From NCBI RefSeq assembly GCF_001906925.1, contig NZ_MRWQ01000015.1:53931-77930 (forward strand): a DNA stretch of 24,000 nt, in the 5' to 3' direction. A program made the translations under genes and the position numbers. The notes under the pieces are model-generated. The model was given only the letters and a program-made list of their open reading frames with translations. It did not search any database and was not told the origin of the DNA. This document shows positions 2,106 through 24,000 of the stretch, piece after piece. Numbering within the stretch: the first letter of the stretch is position 1; each line of letters begins with the position of its first letter. The DNA is from Domibacillus mangrovi. GTDB taxonomy: Bacteria; Bacillota; Bacilli; Bacillales; Domibacillaceae.

Positions 2106-2137
2106 CCTTCCATAAGAAGTCAATGGGAAGTTTTTTT
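2106..2137 (+). terminator. Rho-independent terminator downstream of the malic enzyme gene
   Basis: CCTTCCAT (2106-2113) pairs with ATGGGAAG (2123-2130, one bulged G), followed by T7 (2131-2137). The T tract runs into the left TTTAT of repeat copy A. Confidence 0.6.
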
Positions 2138-2409
2138 ATCCCGCATTAACGGGCAGTAAGACCCCCGTTTCAAGACGTCGAAAAGAAGGATAAGCGGGGG
2201 ATCAACTGTCCGTAAAAGCCCGATTGGTTCGGGCCGGCTGAAGCCGGTCACTTAGGTATTGCCGCAGGACGCGGCGCTCTTTACCTGAGTTCCTTTTTAT
2301 TCAGTGGGGGATAAGCGGAACGCAGACTAAGATCGTCACGTCCTGTGACAACGTCTGCATGATTCACATCCTGTGAACCTAATCTCCACTGAATGAAGTT
2401 TCACTTTAT
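2135..2409 (+). repeat. Copy A (most complete, 275 bp) of a dispersed modular hairpin-dense element
   Basis: Shares long near-identical blocks with 6171-6413, 20293-20449 and 23785-23986. It contains seven predicted helices (see findings), starts with TTTATCCCGCATTAAC and ends with GAAGTTTCACTTTAT. Confidence 0.95.
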
Positions 2410-5556: not shown

Positions 5557-6105
5557 ATGGAGCAGGAGTCGATGCGAGCGGAGATTTTGTCATGGATAAA
5601 AGCGATCGTACTGGCGGTTGTTGTGACGGCTGCATGTAAGTATTTTTTCTTTGAGGGTGTTGTTGTGCACGGGGAGTCGATGCTACCGACGTTTGAGGAT
5701 AATGACAAAGTGATTGTAAGCAAGATGACGAATGTTGAGCGTTTTGATCAGATTGTGTTTCATGCACCTGATTCCGAAGATAATTATATAAAGCGTGTTA
5801 TCGGTGTGCCGGGTGATGCGGTTGAGATGAAAGACGATGTGCTCTATATTAACAAAAAAGCGGTAGATGAGCCTTATTTAGAGGAAAATAAAGAAAGTCT
5901 GATCATCGGACAGAAGTTGACCGCTGATTTTACGTTAGCGGAATTGACGGCTCATGATACAGTGCCGGATGGGTATTTGTTTGTGCTTGGAGATAACCGA
6001 TCAGTGAGCAAAGACAGCCGCACTTTCGGTTTGATTCGAGAAGATTCGGTGATTGGCGAAGTACAGCTGCGGTTTTATCCATTGAGTTCGATTAAGGCTT
6101 ATTAA
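5557..6105 (+). CDS. Type I signal peptidase (SipS/LepB family)
   Basis: 182 aa. An N-terminal TM is followed by the catalytic boxes GESMLPTF (Ser), YIKRVIGVPGD (Lys) and GDNRSVSKDSR. Confidence 0.88.
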   Translation: MEQESMRAEILSWIKAIVLAVVVTAACKYFFFEGVVVHGESMLPTFEDNDKVIVSKMTNVERFDQIVFHAPDSEDNYIKRVIGVPGDAVEMKDDVLYINKKAVDEPYLEENKESLIIGQKLTADFTLAELTAHDTVPDGYLFVLGDNRSVSKDSRTFGLIREDSVIGEVQLRFYPLSSIKAY

Positions 6106-6170: not shown

Positions 6171-6413
6171 TTTATCCCGCATTAACGGGCAGTAAGACCC
6201 CCGCTTCAAGACTTTGAAAAGAAAAGAAGGATAAGCGGGGAATCAACTGCCTGTAAAAGCCCGATTGGTTCGGGCCGGCTCAGGTATTGCCGTAGGACGC
6301 GGTGCTCTTTACCTGAGTTCGGAACGCAGACTAAGATCGTCACGTCCTGTGACAACGTCTGCATGATTCACATCGTGTGAACCTAACCCCTACTGAATGA
6401 AGTTTCACTTTAT
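6171..6413 (+). repeat. Copy B (243 bp) of the modular hairpin element
   Basis: Same ends as copy A. It lacks the 3' half of helix HP3 and the 5' arm of long-range helix HP5. Confidence 0.95.
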
Positions 6414-9094: not shown

Positions 9095-9124
9095 ATAGGC
9101 CGCATGCAAATGCGGTCTATTTTA
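9095..9124. terminator. Bidirectional terminator between convergent genes
   Basis: ATAGGCCGCAT (9095-9105) pairs with ATGCGGTCTAT (9110-9120, one G-U), flanked by A and T runs. It overlaps the TetR stop codon (9117-9119). Confidence 0.6.
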
Positions 9125-9959
9125 CGTGGTAATACTCTTTGACAACGTGCATAAACTCACGAAGTCCAGATTCTTCTTGCAAATTGGCGAGCATACCGCG
9201 CAGGACGGGAAGGCGCGGTGATCCGCTTTTTAATTCTTGCTCAATGACGTCGAGTGAGATCAAAATATTTTCGTCTTTCCAGTCATTTTTCAATTGAGAC
9301 AGCCAGTCAAGGATCGTTTTGTCATTTAGTTTTTCTTTAAACAACTCATTCATGACAGCCGGATCAATGACAGGGTGAGCGCCCCTTTTTCTGAAGCCTG
9401 CTTCTATATCGTCCGCACAGTTTAAGAGGAATGTGGCAAACTCATGATAATCGATGTCCGCTTTGTCGATCATGAGGACATGAATAAACGAATGCTGAAT
9501 ACCTTGCAGTGCAGTAGATAAATCCCAGAAATACGGTTCGATTCTGTCACCGTAAATGGAGGTGAGCCCCTTTTTATAAAATCGATGCGTTTCCAGACGC
9601 ATGTTGAAAATAAAGGCTTCAATTTCATCGTTAAACGGAATGGCATTTTCACGTGCCTGCATAATGATAAATTCTTTATGATGATGAATTTCACGCACCT
9701 GGCATTCGATTTGCTTCAAAAATTTTTCCCGTGGCGTTAAATCTTCCTCTTCAATGACAGTCAATTTATCGTACATTAATTGAAAGTAATAATGCAAAAT
9801 GGCAAGCAACAGTGCTTCTTTTGATTTGAAATGCAAATAAAAGGCGCCTTTTGATATTCCGCACGTAGTCGCAATTTCTTGAACCGAGGTTGCGCTGAAT
9901 CCTTTTTCTGCAAATAATTTTATCGCTTGTTCAATGATGTGTTTGTCTTTTTCTTTCAT
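9117..9959 (-). CDS. TetR/AcrR-family transcriptional regulator with a long C-terminal domain
   Basis: N-terminal HTH IIEQAIKLFAEKGFSATSVQEIATTCGISKGAFYLHFKSKEALL. Preferred start is ATG 9959 (MKEKDK), 6 nt after GAGGTG. It is divergent from the RND gene across an operator-rich spacer. Confidence 0.85.
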   Translation of the reverse strand: MKEKDKHIIEQAIKLFAEKGFSATSVQEIATTCGISKGAFYLHFKSKEALLLAILHYYFQLMYDKLTVIEEEDLTPREKFLKQIECQVREIHHHKEFIIMQARENAIPFNDEIEAFIFNMRLETHRFYKKGLTSIYGDRIEPYFWDLSTALQGIQHSFIHVLMIDKADIDYHEFATFLLNCADDIEAGFRKRGAHPVIDPAVMNELFKEKLNDKTILDWLSQLKNDWKDENILISLDVIEQELKSGSPRLPVLRGMLANLQEESGLREFMHVVKEYYHVK

Positions 9960-9983
9960 GATGGTCACCTCATTTGTCTATTA

Positions 9984-9997
9984 TGACCCAATGGTCA
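9984..9997. promoter_or_regulatory. Operator copy 1, TGACC-CAAT-GGTCA
   Basis: Inverted repeat TGACC/GGTCA with a 4-bp spacer, lying in the tetR 5' region. An extra TGGTCA half-site sits at 9962-9967. Confidence 0.6.
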
Positions 9998-10019
9998 CTT
10001 TTTTGAAACAATTATTTCA

Positions 10020-10048
10020 TTGACGATTGACCAATTGGTCATATATAT
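10020..10048 (+). promoter_or_regulatory. Candidate sigma-A promoter of the RND gene
   Basis: TTGACG (10020-10025), a 17-nt spacer, then ATATAT/TATATT (10043-10049). Operator copy 2 fills the spacer. Confidence 0.5.
10028..10041. promoter_or_regulatory. Operator copy 2, perfect 14-bp palindrome TGACCAATTGGTCA
   Basis: Perfect palindrome between the -35 and -10 of the candidate RND promoter. Confidence 0.65.
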
Positions 10049-10060
10049 TTATAAAAAAAG

Positions 10061-10074
10061 TGACCGATTGGTCA
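10061..10074. promoter_or_regulatory. Operator copy 3, TGACC-GATT-GGTCA
   Basis: Same inverted repeat, immediately upstream of the RND RBS GAAGGAG (10075-10081). Confidence 0.6.
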
Positions 10075-10088
10075 GAAGGAGATTTTTC

Positions 10089-13000
10089 ATGAATGGCTTG
10101 ATTCATTTCGTTTTAAAAAACAAATTCGCTGTCTGGCTGATGACGATCATTATCACTGCTTCGGGTTTATATTCCGGGCTGTCGATGAAGCTCGAGACGA
10201 TTCCCAATATTACGCCGCCAATTGTGACGGTCATGACGGTGTATCCGGGTGCGACGCCGCAAGAAGTGGCGGACAGCGTCTCGGAACCGATTGAAAAACA
10301 GCTGCAAAATTTAAATGGAGTGAAAGTCGTCAGCTCGACGTCATATCAAAATGCGTCGTCTGTGCAGGTGGAATATACATTCTCAACCGATATGGAAAAA
10401 GCGGAGCAGGAAGCAACAGAAGCGCTTGCGAATGTGGATTTTCCTGAAAATGTGCAGGAGCCGGACGTTTCTCGCTTGAGCATTAACGCATTTCCGGTCA
10501 TGTCGCTCAGTCTTTCTGATAAAAACTTGACGCTGCCGGAACTGACTGCGACAGTGGAAGAAGAGATTTTACCGGAAATTGAAGGTGTAGATGGAGTGGC
10601 ATCGGTTCAAATTTCTGGTCAGCAGGTGGAAGAAGCGACGCTCGTCTTTAACGAAGAGAAATTGGTGGAGCTTCAATTAGATGAAGAAACGGTCAAGCAA
10701 ATGATTCAAGCGTCCAATATGAAGGCACCGCTCGGATTATTTACGTTTGGCGATACAGAAAAATCGGTAATGATTGATGGCAATCTTTCGACGCTGGATG
10801 ATTTGAAGAATATGCAAATTGGCCCGGTGAAGCTGTCTGATCTTGCGGACATTGAATTTGTCGGGAAAGCAGAATCGATTTCACGAACGAACGGTCAAGA
10901 ATCGATCGGTTTGCAAATTGTGAAGTCAGCTGACGCGAATACGGTAGATGTTGTCAATGCTGTGAAAGAGAAGGTTACAGAATTTGAAGCAGATATAGAA
11001 GGACTGACGGTTACATCGACATTTGACCAAGGTGCGCCAATTGAAGAGTCGGTGAAGACGATGTTAAGTAAAGCATTGTTTGGGGCGTTGTTTGCCGTCA
11101 TTATCATTATGCTGTTTTTACGTGATGTGCGTTCGACGGTGATCTCGGTTATTTCGATACCCATGTCGATTTTAATTGCGCTCATTTTGTTGAAACAGAT
11201 GGATATTACGTTAAATGTGATGACGCTCGGTGCGATGACGGTGGCGATTGGCCGCGTGATTGATGATTCGATTGTGGTCGTAGAAAATATTTATAGAAGG
11301 CTGTCGCTTGAAGAGGAAGTATTGCGGGGCAAGGAACTGATCCGGGAAGCGACGAAAGAAATGTTTGTGCCGATTCTGTCGTCTACCGTTGTGACGATCG
11401 CGGTATTTTTGCCGCTCGGCCTCGTTGAAGGGACGGTCGGAGAGTTATTCTTGCCGTTTGCGTTAACGGTTGTGTTTGCACTTTTGGCATCGCTTTTGGT
11501 GGCGGTAACGATTGTGCCGATGCTTGCGCATACGATGTTTAAGCGTGGGGTTAAAGCGAAGACACATGAAGAGAAGCCGGGGAAACTGGCCGCATGGTAT
11601 AAATCGGTGTTGAACTGGACATTGAATCATAAAATCATCACGTTTTTAGCGGCGATTTTGCTGCTAGCAGGAAGTTTTCTGCTTGTGCCGAAAATCGGCG
11701 TCAGCTTTTTGCCAGGTGAAGAAGAGAAAATGGTCATCGTGACGTATTCGCCGGAACCAGGGCAGACGCTTGAGGAAGTGGCGAATATTTCAACGGATGC
11801 AGAAAGCTATTTTATGGATATTGAGGATGTTGAGACGGTTCAGTATTCAGTCGGCAGTGAAAATCCGATGAGTCCAGGCCAATCGAACAGTGCGATGTTC
11901 TATGTGATGTATAATGAGGAAACAGAGAATTTTAGTGCGAAAAAAGAAGAAGCCATCGCTAATTTGCAGGCGAGTGTTGAGAAAGGCGAGTGGGCGTCGC
12001 AAGACTTTTCGGCAAGTGCCGGCAGCAACGCGATTGCGGTGAATGTATACGGCGAAACGGTGGAAGATATTGAGCCAGTTGCTGATGAAATTGAAGCGAT
12101 TATGAAGGATAGCGGGTCGTTTAAAAAGGTCGAAACGGGGCTAGCTGATTCGTATGAGGAGTATACACTCGTTGCCGATCAAGAAAAACTGGCCGCAGCG
12201 GGCTTAACAGCGGGTCAAATTGCAATGGAACTAAGTCCTATGCGTGAACGTCCCGTATTGACGACCATTGAAAAAGATGGCAAGGACGTCAATGTGTATT
12301 TAGATGTACCAGTGGAGACATATGAAACAATTGAAGATTTAACAGGGAAAGAAGTAACATCACCGCTTGGCACATTTGTTGTGATCTCGGATGTAATGAC
12401 GGTGGAAGAAGGCAAGACGTCTGATACGGTATCGCGCCGTGATGGAAAAGTGTTTGTTGATGTGAGCGGTGAGCTTAAAGGCGATGATGTATCGGCCGCG
12501 TCTGCTAATATACAGGCGGAACTTGAAGCGCTTGATTTGCCATCTGGTGTAGACGTATCAATGGGCGGTGTAACGCAGGATATTAATGAATCTTTTACAC
12601 AGCTTGGCTTGGCAATGCTGGCTGCTGTCGCGATTGTGTATCTCGTTCTTGTGATCACATTTGGCGGAGGACTTGCACCGCTGGCGATTTTGTTCTCCCT
12701 TCCGTTTACCGTTATTGGTGCACTTGTCGCATTGTTGATTGCAGATGAAACGATCAGTATTTCGTCCATGATTGGTGCCTTAATGCTGATCGGAATTGTC
12801 GTGACGAACGCGATTGTGTTGATCGACCGAGTTATTCGTAAAGAAAAAGAAGGATTGCCTGTGCGTGAGGCATTGCTTGAAGCGGGAGCGACACGATTGC
12901 GGCCGATCTTAATGACGGCGCTTGCGACAATCGGGGCCCTGTTCCCACTTGCTTTAGGACTTGAAGGCGGCGGATTGATTTCAAAAGGATTAGGCGTTAC

Positions 13001-13097
13001 GGTTATCGGTGGATTGACGAGTTCAACGTTACTCACACTTGTGATTGTTCCGATTGTGTATGAAACGTTGTCGAAATGGATGCGGAAAAAAGCATAG
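10089..13097 (+). CDS. RND-superfamily efflux transporter permease (AcrB/SwrC-like, 12 TM with two large extracytoplasmic loops)
   Basis: About 1000 aa. It has the typical RND layout and blocks such as AIGRVIDDSIVVVENI and LIGIVVTNAIVLIDR. Preferred start is ATG 10089 (MNGLIHF), after GAAGGAG. The track start 10020 lies in the promoter. Confidence 0.88.
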   Translation: MNGLIHFVLKNKFAVWLMTIIITASGLYSGLSMKLETIPNITPPIVTVMTVYPGATPQEVADSVSEPIEKQLQNLNGVKVVSSTSYQNASSVQVEYTFSTDMEKAEQEATEALANVDFPENVQEPDVSRLSINAFPVMSLSLSDKNLTLPELTATVEEEILPEIEGVDGVASVQISGQQVEEATLVFNEEKLVELQLDEETVKQMIQASNMKAPLGLFTFGDTEKSVMIDGNLSTLDDLKNMQIGPVKLSDLADIEFVGKAESISRTNGQESIGLQIVKSADANTVDVVNAVKEKVTEFEADIEGLTVTSTFDQGAPIEESVKTMLSKALFGALFAVIIIMLFLRDVRSTVISVISIPMSILIALILLKQMDITLNVMTLGAMTVAIGRVIDDSIVVVENIYRRLSLEEEVLRGKELIREATKEMFVPILSSTVVTIAVFLPLGLVEGTVGELFLPFALTVVFALLASLLVAVTIVPMLAHTMFKRGVKAKTHEEKPGKLAAWYKSVLNWTLNHKIITFLAAILLLAGSFLLVPKIGVSFLPGEEEKMVIVTYSPEPGQTLEEVANISTDAESYFMDIEDVETVQYSVGSENPMSPGQSNSAMFYVMYNEETENFSAKKEEAIANLQASVEKGEWASQDFSASAGSNAIAVNVYGETVEDIEPVADEIEAIMKDSGSFKKVETGLADSYEEYTLVADQEKLAAAGLTAGQIAMELSPMRERPVLTTIEKDGKDVNVYLDVPVETYETIEDLTGKEVTSPLGTFVVISDVMTVEEGKTSDTVSRRDGKVFVDVSGELKGDDVSAASANIQAELEALDLPSGVDVSMGGVTQDINESFTQLGLAMLAAVAIVYLVLVITFGGGLAPLAILFSLPFTVIGALVALLIADETISISSMIGALMLIGIVVTNAIVLIDRVIRKEKEGLPVREALLEAGATRLRPILMTALATIGALFPLALGLEGGGLISKGLGVTVIGGLTSSTLLTLVIVPIVYETLSKWMRKKA

Positions 13098-17625: not shown

Positions 17626-19692
17626 TTATTTTATTTTGAACTGTTGTATAAGATCATTCAAATTAGCTGCGCTTTCCTCTAGTGATTTTGCACTCCCAGA
17701 AACTTCATCCATTGAACTGCTTGATTCTTGAGCAGTAGCCGACACTTGTTCAATACCTGCAGCTGCTTCTTCTGAAACAGATGCTATGTTTTCAATGGAA
17801 TCATTAATAGATTTTGTATTATCTAACACCGTATATAATGATGATGCCATTTCTTCAATTTGAGTGCCAACTAAATGAATGGTTTCTTTGAGGTTTTTAA
17901 ATGTTTCCCCGGTCGTTTGGATTTGACTTGTGCCTTCATTTACTAGTTCATATCCATCATCTAGCGATTTGACCACCTGTTTTGATTCTAATTGAATATC
18001 TTTAACAATGTTTGTAATATCAGAAATAGAATGCCCAACTTGTTCCGCGAGCTTTCGAACCTCATTTGCTACGACCGCAAAACCTTTTCCTTGTTCTCCT
18101 GCACGGGCAGCTTCAATGGATGCGTTAAGTGCCAGCAAGTTTGTCTGTTCTGCAACCTCCTCAATTACTTTCACTAGCTTTGTAATTTCATTCGTCTTGT
18201 TATCTAATCCTTTGACCATGGAGAGTGAATGTTTCACTTTATCATTAATATGGTCCATTTTCCGAATGGATTCTTCCATATATTCACTTCCATTATTCGT
18301 CATCTTGAGCATGGTGTGTGATTGATCTTTTATATCTTCACCTTTATCAACGATATGCATGATTTCTTGAGAGAACTGAATCATCTTTTCATTAAGTGAT
18401 GATGACGAATGAGCTTGAATTTCTGCCCCGTTTGCCAACTCATCCATCGTTGTGGCAATTTGTTGACTGCCAGTCGTTACTGCATCTGCATATTGTGTAA
18501 GTTCTTCACTCTCGCTCGTTACATTATTCGATACAATAATGATCTCTTCAACCAACTGTTTTAATGAATTTCTCATATCACGAATACTATTAGAAATCGT
18601 TCCGATCTCATCTTTTCTTGATAAGTATTTTGTGTCAATCTCTTGGGAAAAGTCACCACTTGCAATGATTTTTAAACTTTCAGCTGATTTAATGATCGGT
18701 GTAGTGATTCGCTTTGAAATTAAAATATTTAATAAAAGAGTAAAGATGAGAACAATAACCGAAATAAGTAAAATCGTTTTGGTCATCTCTTTAGCCCCAC
18801 TTGTTAATTCATCCTCGGATATAAATGACGCTAAAGTCCAGTCGGTGTTCTTTACTTTATATGGAGAAACCATGTATTTTTTTCCTTTAATCGTTGCATA
18901 AAAGGGTTTTATATCTTTTGATAATACCTTTGTTAACCCCTCGATCTTTACTTCTTCTATCTTTTTGAAATTATTTTTGGCGTTATTTCCATCCGCCATA
19001 ATAATGCCCGTATTATGTACGATCATAGAAAAACCTGTGTTGCCTGTCCTCATTTCATTTAACATGTCACTGATAACAGATTGCTGAACATCGATTCCTA
19101 TTGTTCCTAATAGCTTCCCGTTCTTATCCGTGAATGTCTTCACATTACTTGTCCCCATTGAATTCGTAATACTGTCTATATACGGGGCTGTCCTGACGAT
19201 ATCCCCATTACCGCCTATAGCCGTTTGATACCATCCTCTAGTGGTAGGGTCATAGTTTTCGTTGATTTTTGTTTCGGGCCACGTAAGGTATGCTCCTTCT
19301 TTTGTTGCAAGATACACATACATTGTGTCTGGATGTGTATCTGCATACAGTTTAAATGCATCATATATTTTTTGTTCTAATCCTCCATTTTTAGAAGGTG
19401 TCATTTGTACTTCTTGACTGTTATTTTTATATGTTGTAATAGATGTATCCGCTTGCATAATTAATGGATGTTGAGCCATCATTTGAATATCTTTATCTAT
19501 TTGATCATAAAAAATGCCTATCGATTTCTCAACAATCATCATTTGTTCTTTTGAATTATCTAGAAAATCATTTTTAGCTTGTTTAGTAATTTGATAGCTC
19601 ATGATGCCGCCGACTATTAATAAAGTAAATAGAATCCCAATAGCTGAAGTTGCTATAAATTGTGCTTGTATACTTCTTATTTTTTTAAACAA
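17626..19692 (-). CDS. Methyl-accepting chemotaxis protein with double-Cache (dCache_1-like) sensor, HAMP and MA domains
   Basis: The sensor has Cache-type [15 protein letters not shown] is [22 protein letters not shown]...[13 protein letters not shown]. The signalling hairpin is [38 protein letters not shown]. Preferred start is TTG 19692 (MFKKIRS), 7 nt after GGGGGT. The track start at 19719 is also a TTG but has no RBS. AT-rich codon usage. Confidence 0.85.
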
Positions 19693-20197
19693 ATATTTTA
19701 CCCCCAATTGACATGACAATTCTTGCGGAAAATAACGTTAAATAATTTGTTCTAACTCAATAATGGTTTTAAAATCAGAGTATTCGCTTCTCGAAAATCG
19801 TATATGGAATTGGAAAAATTCATGAGACGGAAAGCATCTCATAATGTATCTTTGTCCGGCTATTCAGATAATAAATAGGATGAAAGTGGTGATGAACATT
19901 CCCCCTTGTTTCTAAAGTCTTTAGTGGATACAAGATATAACACCTTTCTGCAAAATAAAAAAGGTACGCCTGAAAACAAGGCCCCCTTTTTTGTAAGTTT
20001 CCTCCGGTCATCCGGCTGCCATAGCCAAAAGGCTTTAGGTCCGTAGCAATGTGTTTTTATCTGTCAATCCGTTTGCCATTATCGATAAAATTATTTAATT
20101 AGTATAATCATAACATATTATAACATATTTTCACATAATTACAATGAAATCGATATTTTTACCAGTTCGTTTTACCTATCTTTTTCGTTGAAAATAG

Positions 20198-20242
20198 AAA
20201 GGCGACATTCCGTTAAATTTTCAACGAAATGTCGCCTTTTTT
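20198..20242. terminator. Terminator hairpin (perfect 11-bp stem) usable on both strands
   Basis: AAAGGCGACAT (20198-20208) pairs perfectly with ATGTCGCCTTT (20229-20239). TTTTT follows on the + strand and CTATTTTC on the minus strand. It is interleaved with a second perfect 12-bp stem (see findings). Confidence 0.65.
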
Positions 20243-20292: not shown

Positions 20293-20449
20293 TTTATCCC
20301 ACATTAACGGGCAGTAAGACCCCCGCTTCAAGACTTTGAAAAGAAAAGAAGGATAAGCGGGGGGATCAACTGCCCGTAAAAGCCCGATTGGTTCAACTAA
20401 CATTCAGTGGGGATGAAGAAAACCCCCACTGAATGAAGTTTCACTTTAT
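20293..20449 (+). repeat. Copy C (157 bp, minimal form) of the modular hairpin element
   Basis: Retains the left end, helix HP1, the 5' half of HP2, HP5 closed as a simple hairpin (ATTCAGTGGGG / CCCCACTGAAT) and the right end. Confidence 0.95.
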
Positions 20450-23784: not shown

Positions 23785-23986
23785 TTTAACGAAGGATAAG
23801 CAGGGGATCAACTGCCCGTAAAAGCCCGATTGGTTCGGGCCAGGCAGAGCCTGGTCACTCAGGTATTGCCGCAGGACGCGGCGTTCTTTACCTGAGTTCC
23901 TGTTTATTCAGTGGGGAGAGAGGAAGGCAGACTAAGAACGTCACATCCTGTGAACCTAACCCCCACTGAATGAAGTATCACTTTAT
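23785..23986 (+). repeat. Copy D (202 bp, 5'-truncated variant) of the modular hairpin element
   Basis: Starts inside HP1 (GAAGGATAAGCAGGGGATCAACTGCCCG). It has HP2, a covarying HP3, HP4 and HP5, fused HP6/HP7, and the canonical right end ...CACTGAATGAAGTATCACTTTAT. Confidence 0.9.
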
Positions 23987-24000
23987 TGAAAAGAACGATC

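Follow-up and report, generated by a model that had tools for sequence, protein, structure and literature searches.

What is a hairpin-dense sequence that no gene accounts for doing in four places of one short stretch of a bacterial genome? The question is raised by 24,000 nt of Domibacillus mangrovi DNA (NCBI RefSeq assembly GCF_001906925.1, contig NZ_MRWQ01000015.1, positions 53,931 to 77,930), which are referred to here as the window. An earlier note, made from the letters of the window alone, had described a dispersed, modular repeat that it could not match to a named repeat or Rfam family. The four copies are likely to be a non-autonomous, gene-less mobile DNA repeat composed of two known parts, namely a shell of the bcr1 type and hairpin cassettes of the Bacillaceae-1 family (Rfam RF01690). 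The search for a named relative thus ended differently from the earlier account: the Rfam comparison returned RF01690 for the hairpin (HP) pair HP6+HP7 on the plus strand and for HP3+HP4 on the minus strand, and the shell fits the published description of bcr1.

Composite Anatomy of the Four Copies

All copies lie on the plus strand, at positions 2135-2409 (copy A, 275 bp), 6171-6413 (copy B, 243 bp), 20293-20449 (copy C, 157 bp), and 23786-23987 (copy D, about 200 bp). Repeat search and MAFFT alignment agree with the earlier note on this arrangement. The repeat search resolved common blocks of 42-94 nt with 87-100% identity, whose layout was taken from the MAFFT alignment. The aligned flanks of the copies are unrelated, which rules out segmental duplication. 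No open reading frame (ORF) of more than 52 amino acids lies inside any copy and none is conserved between copies, as had been claimed, and a coding element was therefore ruled out. A 68-amino-acid ORF (1943-2149) overlaps copy A by 15 nt only.

The window was scanned against Rfam 15 at gathering thresholds, which for RF01690 is a score of 35 bits. Four matches to this family were obtained, each covering model positions 1-67. Two are located on the plus strand, in copy A (2311-2377; 80.5 bits, E = 1e-13) and copy B (6315-6381; 76.4 bits, E = 9.2e-13), and two on the minus strand, in copy A (2234-2299; 57.3 bits, E = 2.6e-08) and copy D (23840-23906; 54.0 bits, E = 1.6e-07). The model is strand-specific, as each site is matched on one strand only. 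The Bacillaceae-1 motif came to light in a comparative-genomic study and was described as a probably trans-acting RNA that occurs in many gene contexts and forms two hairpins with RUCCU loops (Weinberg et al., 2010). The modules of the window resemble it in spanning the full 67-nt model at 54-80 bits and in their two hairpins with RUCCU loops. They differ from it in being cassettes within a mobile shell, found in both orientations within one element, rather than a free-standing small RNA (sRNA) locus.

The shell itself is about 157 bp long and has the layout [TTTAT]CCCGCATTAAC - HP1 - GTAAAAGCCCGATTGGTTCAACTAAC - HP5 - GAAGTTTCACTTTAT, with a left end TTTAT|CCCGCATTAAC...HP1 and a right end HP5...GTTTCACTTTAT|. 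Copy A represents the full double-composite form, consisting of this shell, an inverted module, and a forward module, all of it read on the plus strand except for the inverted module. It is matched by the left nhmmer model of the shell at 2135-2230 and by the right model at 2374-2409. At its 5' border stands a TTTAT pentamer (2135-2139) that is present once in the empty site of Domibacillus aminovorans, followed by HP1 (2149-2213), in which an outer stem ACGGGCAGT / ACTGTCCGT surrounds an inner stem CCCCCG / CGGGGG, an assignment based on both fold and covariation. The inverted module (HP3+HP4, 2234-2299, minus strand) occupies insertion site 1, where it replaces the shell sequence AACTAAC. 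It is succeeded by the 5' arm of HP5 (ATTCAGTGGGGG, 2299-2310), which pairs with positions 2384-2394. The loop of HP5 constitutes insertion site 2 and contains the forward module (HP6+HP7, 2311-2377, plus strand) with the loops CGUCCUG and CAUCCUG. The 3' arm of HP5 (CTCCACTGAAT) and the conserved right end GAAGTTTCAC-TTTAT complete the copy (2384-2409). Between HP1 and the inverted module lies HP2 (CCCGA-TTGGT-TCGGG, CCCGATTGGTTCGGG; 2219-2233), a junction hairpin at which the conserved shell box GTAAAAGCCCGATTGGTTC meets the inserted module. HP2 is seen in composite copies of Rummeliibacillus and Sporosarcina and is missing from plain copies, where the sequence reads GATTGGTTCAACTAAC. It is not part of the basic element and arises only where the inverted module joins GATTGGTTC.

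The remaining copies deviate from this form in different ways. Copy B is a composite with two internal deletions, one of 13 nt in the second hairpin of the inverted module (the HP3 region) and one of 24 nt that contained the 5' arm of HP5. Copy D is a 5'-truncated composite, matching the left model from position 55 onward, in which the inverted module is intact and the forward module is cut by a 28-nt deletion that joins two CAC(G/A)TCCTGTGA loops. In the alignment, both deletions of copy B and the internal deletion of copy D fall between short direct repeats or within a palindrome; in copy B, the module tails GTTCC and GGAAC flank the lost HP5 arm. Copy C is a plain shell without any module that contains only HP1 and HP5 and fits both nhmmer models end to end (left 2-103, right 1-56). 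It is the standard form of the family and not a deletion derivative, because the modal length of 61 plain copies aligned in register is 156-160 bp. The first 70 nt of copies B and C are 99% identical and an ATTCAG/CTGAAT variant of HP5 is common to all four copies, indicating that the plain and composite shells of this genome are close kin. The module differences proposed earlier are consequently borne out by the alignment for copies B and D and, in part, for copy C, which indeed keeps only HP1 and HP5; the half of HP2 that it was thought to retain belongs to a hairpin foreign to the basic element. Likewise, the idea that copies differ by loss of modules is mostly to be turned around: the plain form is widespread, cassettes were acquired at two fixed sites, and secondary deletions are confined to copies B and D.

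Minimum-energy folding of copy A on the plus strand (-104.5 kcal/mol, z = -5.4; none of 200 shuffles as stable) reproduced HP1 to HP7, including the long-range helix HP5, as previously drawn. The reverse strand folds to -100.8 kcal/mol (z = -4.6). Covariation of the shell was examined in 84 distinct plain copies with the structure obtained from RNAalifold, which recovered HP1, with its outer and inner stems, and HP5. In this set, 97.1% of cells pair, compared with 26-51% when the partners are slid by 1-3 columns, and 136 cells are doubly changed, compared with 10-16 when slid. Neither observed value was reached by any of 500 shuffles. Double changes affect six of seven pairs in the outer helix of HP1 and all five pairs of the inner helix. 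Covariation is strong at the base of HP5, where one pair alternates between C-G (44 copies) and U-A (40), another between A-U (62) and C-G (16), and a third shows five pair types. The copies are kin through transposition and their changes are not independent events, a kinship that the slid controls share. The helices of the shell are upheld by many compensatory changes. Wobble (G-U) pairs and A-C mismatches number 48 and 34, counts that do not decide which strand folds. Since both strands fold about equally well and the copies are randomly oriented with respect to genes (see below), the shell is better read as two independent hairpins with separately folding cassettes nested inside than as the multi-branch, RNA-like fold suggested at first.

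The cassettes show their own conservation pattern. The loops of the forward module are GUCCU and AUCCU in copy A and GUCCU and AUCGU, with one loop position different, in copy B. In the inverted modules, the first hairpin retains GUCCU, and the loops of the second hairpins are decayed (UUCA in copy A, CUCUG in copy D). A comparison of 12 modules from the window and from other genera revealed that 12 of 16 pairs have undergone compensatory changes between forward and inverted modules, the loops and bulges being conserved. Because of these changes, forward and inverted modules are to be regarded as diverged homologs rather than products of a recent inverted duplication.

The same two insertion sites recur outside Domibacillus. 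Roughly 20 shell copies among the loci collected here exceed 175 bp, and Rfam identifies Bacillaceae-1 in 10 of these. At site 1, between GATTGGTTC and HP5 with AACTAAC replaced, the module is inverted in 11 of 11 cases (Rummeliibacillus L023, L053, and L065, the last with two copies; Sporosarcina L075; Lederbergia L077; Bacillus sp. L058 and L105; and copies A, B, and D). At site 2, in the HP5 loop, it is forward in six of six (Siminovitchia L016, Lysinibacillus L074, Cytobacillus L082, copies A and B, and a remnant in copy D). Polarity therefore follows the site in 17 of 17 composite cases without exception. The site-1 junction is identical across genera, which suggests a single origin of the site-1 composite lineage. 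Among the composite copies examined, both modules occur together only in those of Domibacillus.

In copies of the B. cereus group, the HP1 loop forms a third insertion site and holds an unrelated insert of about 120 bp, and Bacillaceae-1 was seen in none of these copies. Such inserts were located at L097 3996-4268, L072 3302-3577, L115 5442-5722, L112 5386-5666, L101 4011-4411 (duplicated), and L030 2491-2684 (shorter). Rfam does not recognize them, and they may represent a different bcr repeat that already has a name. Bacillaceae-1 modules can also be nested in each other: a second module is found inside the first-hairpin loop of another at L058 7005-7135, L105 1945-2068, and L105 1368-1495, resulting in four RUCCU loops, and the last of these is free-standing, outside any shell. 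In a separate observation, the inverted module of Rummeliibacillus at L023 402-464 has the tip of its first hairpin alone flipped, with a loop AGGAC in place of the GUCCU of all others, which looks like a hairpin-tip inversion.

Yet another carrier is seen in the B. subtilis (NC_000964) and B. licheniformis (NC_006270) rows of the Bacillaceae-1 alignment, where, in the copies examined, the modules are embedded in a different conserved shell, CAGCGUGUCGACAAACCCUCG ... CACGCUGA. This carrier is a repeat of about 190 bp with inverted-repeat-like ends TCAGCGTG ... CACGCTGA that is unrelated to the present shell. The motifs of the present shell were found in none of the sequences of that alignment file (Weinberg et al., 2010). 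Bacillaceae-1 therefore behaves as a cassette within several unrelated carriers.

Insertion Sites and Family of the Shell

Comparison with other Domibacillus genomes indicated that copies A, B, and D are insertions. The signal peptidase gene at 5557-6105 encodes a product 100% identical to a D. mangrovi protein and 91% identical to its D. aminovorans counterpart, and the D. aminovorans contig is syntenic. The site of copy A reads GGGAGGTTT-TTTAT-ACTATTTCATC in D. aminovorans (L117) and GGGAAGTTTT-TTTAT-[element ending TTTAT]-CCTATTTAATC in the window. The site of copy B reads AATAGAATAT-TTTAT-TTTTGTAAAG and AATAGAATAG-TTTAT-[element]-TTTTATGAAA, respectively. At both positions, the D. aminovorans site is empty and has one TTTAT precisely where the element is inserted in the window. 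Copy D is missing from two relatives (L121 and L120), whose empty sites show TTTAA or TTTGC where the 3' end of the element has TTTAT; its 3' junction is CACTTTAT|TGAAAAG, compared with ATTTTAA|TGAAAAG in L121. In addition, a plain copy in Domibacillus GCA_000744645.1 is missing from a close relative. As copies A and B are separate recent insertions of the same composite architecture, the composite moved as a unit. The 88 kb of syntenic sequence from four other Domibacillus genomes (L117-L121) contain one plain shell (L120 13307-13465) and no Bacillaceae-1, whereas the 24-kb window contains four shells, three of them with Bacillaceae-1. This contrast in density points to a recent expansion in the D. 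mangrovi lineage.

TTTAT borders copies A, B, and C on either side, and the same is true of 61 of the 84 plain copies. Of these 84, TTTAT is found as the 5' pentamer of 65 and as the 3' pentamer of 78, and 17 copies vary at the 5' pentamer only compared with four at the 3' pentamer only (two-sided binomial p ~0.007). This unequal variation suggests that the 3' TTTAT belongs to the element and that the 5' TTTAT is target DNA, in which case there would be no true duplication. Pentamers and empty sites are also compatible with a 5-bp duplication whose two sides later decayed unequally. In Lysinibacillus, two or three shells are lined up head to tail (L013 4296-4764, L037 4028-4493, and L071 7275-7521) with one TTTAT per junction, as fits an element whose own end recreates its target.

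From these data, a course of events can be proposed. The shell would insert directly 3' of TTTAT or a near-TTTAT pentamer in intergenic DNA, with its own terminal TTTAT mimicking a 5-bp duplication, and would be moved in trans by an enzyme that recognizes the conserved ends and the two subterminal hairpins. Copies A, B, and D would descend from a composite ancestor in which Bacillaceae-1 cassettes, each consisting of two hairpins with RUCCU loops, had become nested at two fixed sites of the shell, inverted between GATTGGTTC and HP5 and forward in the HP5 loop. This composite would then have been transposed as a unit, and copies B and D would later have lost pieces by deletion between short repeats or palindromes.

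The family extends far beyond the window. Its distribution was scanned with one invariant 19-mer of the shell (GTAAAAGCCCGATTGGTTC) in GTDB representatives comprising one genome per species, which yielded at least 116 matching stretches. Among the matches listed, hosts from the B. cereus group include B. paranthracis, B. mycoides, B. pseudomycoides, B. thuringiensis, B. cereus, B. mobilis, B. luti, and others. Further hosts among them belong to Lysinibacillus, Rummeliibacillus, Sporosarcina, Solibacillus, Neobacillus, Cytobacillus, Peribacillus, Lederbergia, Fredinandcohnia, Siminovitchia, Tigheibacillus, Terrilactibacillus, and Amphibacillus, and the genera beyond the B. cereus group in which the shell occurs number at least 15. 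Profile searches of the shell loci detected 177 left halves and 153 right halves, most of which pair as units of 150-160 bp. Among plasmids, 53 of 57 positive records are from Bacillus, those listed being from B. cereus-group species. Viral contigs contained no exact matches to the shell. A metagenome scan used a junction pattern that proved too short for the collection, and four of its 120 matches are real shells. The notion of a dispersed, modular, hairpin-rich, non-coding family is thus borne out beyond the 24-kb window by the 19-mer matches.

In the literature, bcr1 is a repeat of about 155 bp, the most abundant one in the B. cereus group, flanked by TTTAT and forming two independent stem-loops with compensatory changes. 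Its location varies between strains, it is often transcribed within neighboring mRNAs, and it is called specific to the B. cereus group. The name reportedly stands for Bacillus cereus group repeat 1, which is said to be Group A of the series bcr1-bcr18 treated by Okstad, Klevan, Kristoffersen, and their colleagues in 2004, 2007, and 2011. The shell is very probably bcr1, matched by this description and not by sequence. The likeness includes the unit length (157 bp in copy C and 156-160 bp in the plain form vs. about 155 bp), the TTTAT ends, the two compensated stem-loops, the high copy number, the non-conserved and intergenic locations, and the lack of a gene. The median identity of copy C to B. 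cereus-group copies is 80%, and identity rises to 87% for a Sporosarcina copy. Measured against the B. cereus-group copies of about 157 bp, which serve as a proxy and are not the published consensus, copy C would pass the survey rule of 75% identity and 50% coverage. It differs from bcr1 as described in its host, Domibacillus, and in the presence of the shell in at least 15 genera outside the group for which bcr1 was held to be specific. Moreover, three of the four window copies carry Bacillaceae-1, while B. cereus-group copies carry the insert of about 120 bp in the HP1 loop instead.

Several points weigh against this interpretation of the four copies. The identification with bcr1 rests on four descriptive features and not on a comparison with a published bcr1 consensus, and the group-specificity assigned to bcr1 in the literature conflicts with the distribution found, so that the two could be sister families. 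No gene-bearing element with shell ends was found in about 950 kb around 170 copies, no IS200-type transposase was detected by tblastn of the loci with an approximate TnpA query, and no transposase lies beside five partial plasmid matches. Three apparent long left-right pairs, considered as candidates for a parent element, were mis-pairings of separate short copies, and what follows unpaired left ends is either an ordinary gene or a composite copy. Finally, the strong conservation of module loops and pairing could signify a function at the host level, in RNA or in protein binding, that a selfish element does not require.

Host Function, Selfish DNA, and the Mobilizing Enzyme

A host function could be exerted by structured sRNA genes or RNA cis-elements that act via the Bacillaceae-1 hairpins, the shell being a vehicle or an RNA extension. 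The GGA loops of one strand (CAGGAC, CAGGAU) could sequester CsrA and the UCCU loops of the other could pair with Shine-Dalgarno sequences. In Gammaproteobacteria, CsrA is a translational regulator that is sequestered by CsrB. Rfam files RF01690 as type "Gene; sRNA", with no function shown, and the family was scored as covariation-supported and probably trans-acting. Eight Bacillaceae-1 loci have been reported in B. subtilis. The discoverers were unsure of the strand, and a later paper noted that the reverse complement resembles CsrA-binding sites; the literature searched offered no experimental support for such binding. The conserved loops in stems that vary by compensatory change would suit an RNA of this kind, as would the nested variants, which raise the number of RUCCU loops to four as for a protein sponge, although the second-hairpin loops of the inverted modules are decayed (TTCA in copy A, CTCTG in copy D). 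The full copy holds the module both ways, so any transcript would contain GGA and UCC loops together. Copies are also recent insertions missing from sister species, and those in the window exhibit no consistent promoter-like or terminator-like site, which speaks against sRNA genes and rules out a terminator or promoter module. The orientation to flanking genes points the same way, with 33 co-oriented tandem, 36 anti-oriented tandem, 27 divergent, and 19 convergent cases. We consider the sRNA interpretation unlikely. The orientation of copies is random with respect to flanking genes and to replication, and 137 of 139 copies are intergenic, a pattern that is one of selfish DNA tolerated between genes and not of an orientation-dependent RNA element. 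Effects on neighboring genes are probably incidental. The conserved RUCCU/AGGAY loops may be recognition sites of a cassette-copying machinery or protein-binding sites in RNA, for which CsrA has been proposed.

Very unlikely, in our estimation, is a host-domesticated palindrome of the REP/BIME or BOX type that serves as a stabilizer of mRNA 3' ends, an attenuator, or a site for nucleoid proteins and is spread by recombination. BIMEs are built from REP palindromes of 20-40 bp that are tied to RAYT transposases, and BOX elements have the structure boxA-boxB-boxC. The earlier comparison with these repeats is a fair analogy as regards the mosaic architecture with alternating orientation: a few hairpin modules occur in varied number and orientation in gene-less elements that are strictly intergenic and fold stably on both strands. 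The analogy ends there, as there is no sequence relationship and neither BIME nor BOX shows TTTAT-specific insertion or an asymmetric shell of 157 bp. The present units measure 157-275 bp, have asymmetric conserved ends, and insert precisely at TTTAT with clean empty sites. The GTAG/CGTC tetranucleotide tag of REP is not found in the window units, T-tracts are absent from the copies, and convergent gene 3' ends are not preferred (19 convergent vs. 27 divergent). A classical miniature inverted-repeat transposable element was ruled out, too, since the 16 nt at the left end (TTTATCCCGCATTAAC) are not the reverse complement of the 16 nt at the right end (GAAGTTTCACTTTAT) and the terminal inverted repeats that such an element derives from a DDE-transposase insertion sequence are lacking. 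An interspersed repeat of 190 bp is reportedly described in the 1997 genome paper on B. subtilis 168 by Kunst and co-workers, where its orientation is said to be uniform relative to replication. It resembles the elements of the window in being dispersed, intergenic, and conserved in secondary structure with Bacillaceae-1 at its center, and differs in its unrelated shell, its inverted-repeat-like ends (TCAGCGTG / CACGCTGA), and its lack of TTTAT ends.

Assuming that the repeat with a bcr1-type shell is mobile DNA, two mechanisms can be considered for its movement, and they are equally open. The shell could be a palindrome-associated transposable element (PATE) of the IS200/IS605 family, for which a Y1 HUH transposase TnpA would excise the top strand as a single-stranded circle via HP1 and HP5 and paste it 3' of TTTAT, with the 3' TTTAT as the cleavage motif. 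This mechanism is possible but tentative. A precedent exists in the same bacterial family, in Geobacillus stearothermophilus, where ISGst2 targets TTTAT and gene-less, ISGst-derived PATEs are mobilized in trans (Meers et al., 2023). The shell shares with such elements the absence of genes and of terminal inverted repeats, two unlike ends that each have a subterminal hairpin on the same strand, and an apparent insertion 3' of a pentanucleotide. The asymmetric end pentamers (17 vs. 4) are accommodated as well, as are the TTTAA and TTTGC empty sites of copy D, the tandem arrays sharing a single TTTAT, and the empty sites in general, which correspond to the scarless donor joint expected of that family. 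Alternatively, the shell could move by conservative site-specific recombination, in which a circular form of the element would recombine at its TTTAT core with a chromosomal TTTAT, catalyzed by a host or prophage tyrosine or serine recombinase. This option is rather doubtful, and it would account for TTTAT standing on both sides of filled sites and once in empty ones, and likewise for the single shared TTTAT of the arrays. It is also the mechanism proposed for bcr1 according to reviews.

A marked replication-orientation bias is expected of IS200/IS605 elements from the work on IS608 and ISDra2. No such bias was observed for the shell, as 30 and 29 loci fall into the two orientations where GC skew and gene-strand bias agree; an apparent bias in a cruder test (66 vs. 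42 loci, p = 0.026) was gone under these stricter criteria. This outcome argues against the transposase and speaks for the recombinase. Neither TnpA nor TnpB lies near any copy, and a cognate transposase or a full-length parent with the same ends was found neither in the approximately 950 kb around the copies nor in the plasmid matches. The module in copies A, B, and D has replaced AACTAAC 5' of HP5, the place at which a right-end guide would lie, yet copies A and B are recent insertions. The recombinase has difficulties of its own. A core of 5 bp that lacks inverted recombinase-binding arms on its flanks is unusual, none of the copies among the loci and plasmid matches is linked to a recombinase gene, and the unequal conservation of the pentamers needs an extra assumption on the point of strand exchange. 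The enzyme may thus, with the respective reservations, be a single-strand HUH transposase of the IS200/IS605 type with a TTTAT target or a site-specific recombinase for which TTTAT is the core; the remaining probability falls to neither of them.

It is conceivable, albeit improbable, that the Bacillaceae-1 cassette is itself an independently propagating module and thereby a parasite of parasites. It has at least three unrelated carriers, namely the bcr1-like shell with its two fixed sites and fixed polarity, the repeat seen in B. subtilis and B. licheniformis, and another cassette that takes it up in its first-hairpin loop, and it also occurs free-standing. If a dedicated mechanism copied the cassette into hairpin loops, the "sRNA" RF01690 would represent a new class of nested mobile hairpin cassette, and the bcr1 family that carries it might be moved by a TTTAT-specific HUH transposase accompanying TnpB. 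In a weaker variant, the cassettes would strew CsrA-binding GGA hairpins across untranslated regions.

Neighboring Sequences and Implications

Three further features of the window were recorded. A borderline match to the c-di-GMP-I riboswitch (RF01051; 36.2 bits vs. a gathering score of 35) lies at 20003-20087 on the minus strand, upstream of a gene for a methyl-accepting chemotaxis protein (17626-19719, minus strand). The region 9981-10077 holds three copies of a 14-bp palindrome like TGACCAATTGGTCA (9984-9997, 10028-10041, and 10061-10074) between a divergent pair of genes coding for a TetR-family protein (9117-9968, minus strand) and an RND transporter (10020-13097, plus strand); these palindromes look like putative TetR operator sites. 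A hairpin with a 19-bp stem, AAAGGCGACATTTCGTT...AACGGAATGTCGCCTTT, is found at 20198-20239, separated from the left end of copy C by about 55 nt. This hairpin is terminator-like on the minus strand, on which no gene ends there.

As for the four copies, the finding is real and most likely does not define a new class: it concerns a mobile repeat of the bcr1 family whose host genus is new and whose double-composite form, with two opposed Bacillaceae-1 cassettes, had not been described before. What is new is how widely the shell is distributed beyond the B. cereus group, the rule that links cassette site and polarity, the clean empty sites, and the evidence for a 3' TTTAT owned by the element. 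For two decades, bcr1 has been treated as a marker of the B. cereus group. Relatives in Domibacillus and in at least 15 genera widen the family and provide many independent lineages in which the mobilizing enzyme can be sought. The 3' TTTAT that the element appears to bring along, its insertion next to a TTTAT, and the TTTAT target of ISGst2 make an IS200/IS605 mechanism testable, and the lack of strand bias argues against it. The occurrence of Bacillaceae-1 as cargo of mobile repeats, in one orientation or the other, calls for caution in annotating it as an sRNA gene. No major concept is changed by these observations, and their main value lies in a correct classification of the repeat and in the leads that follow from it.

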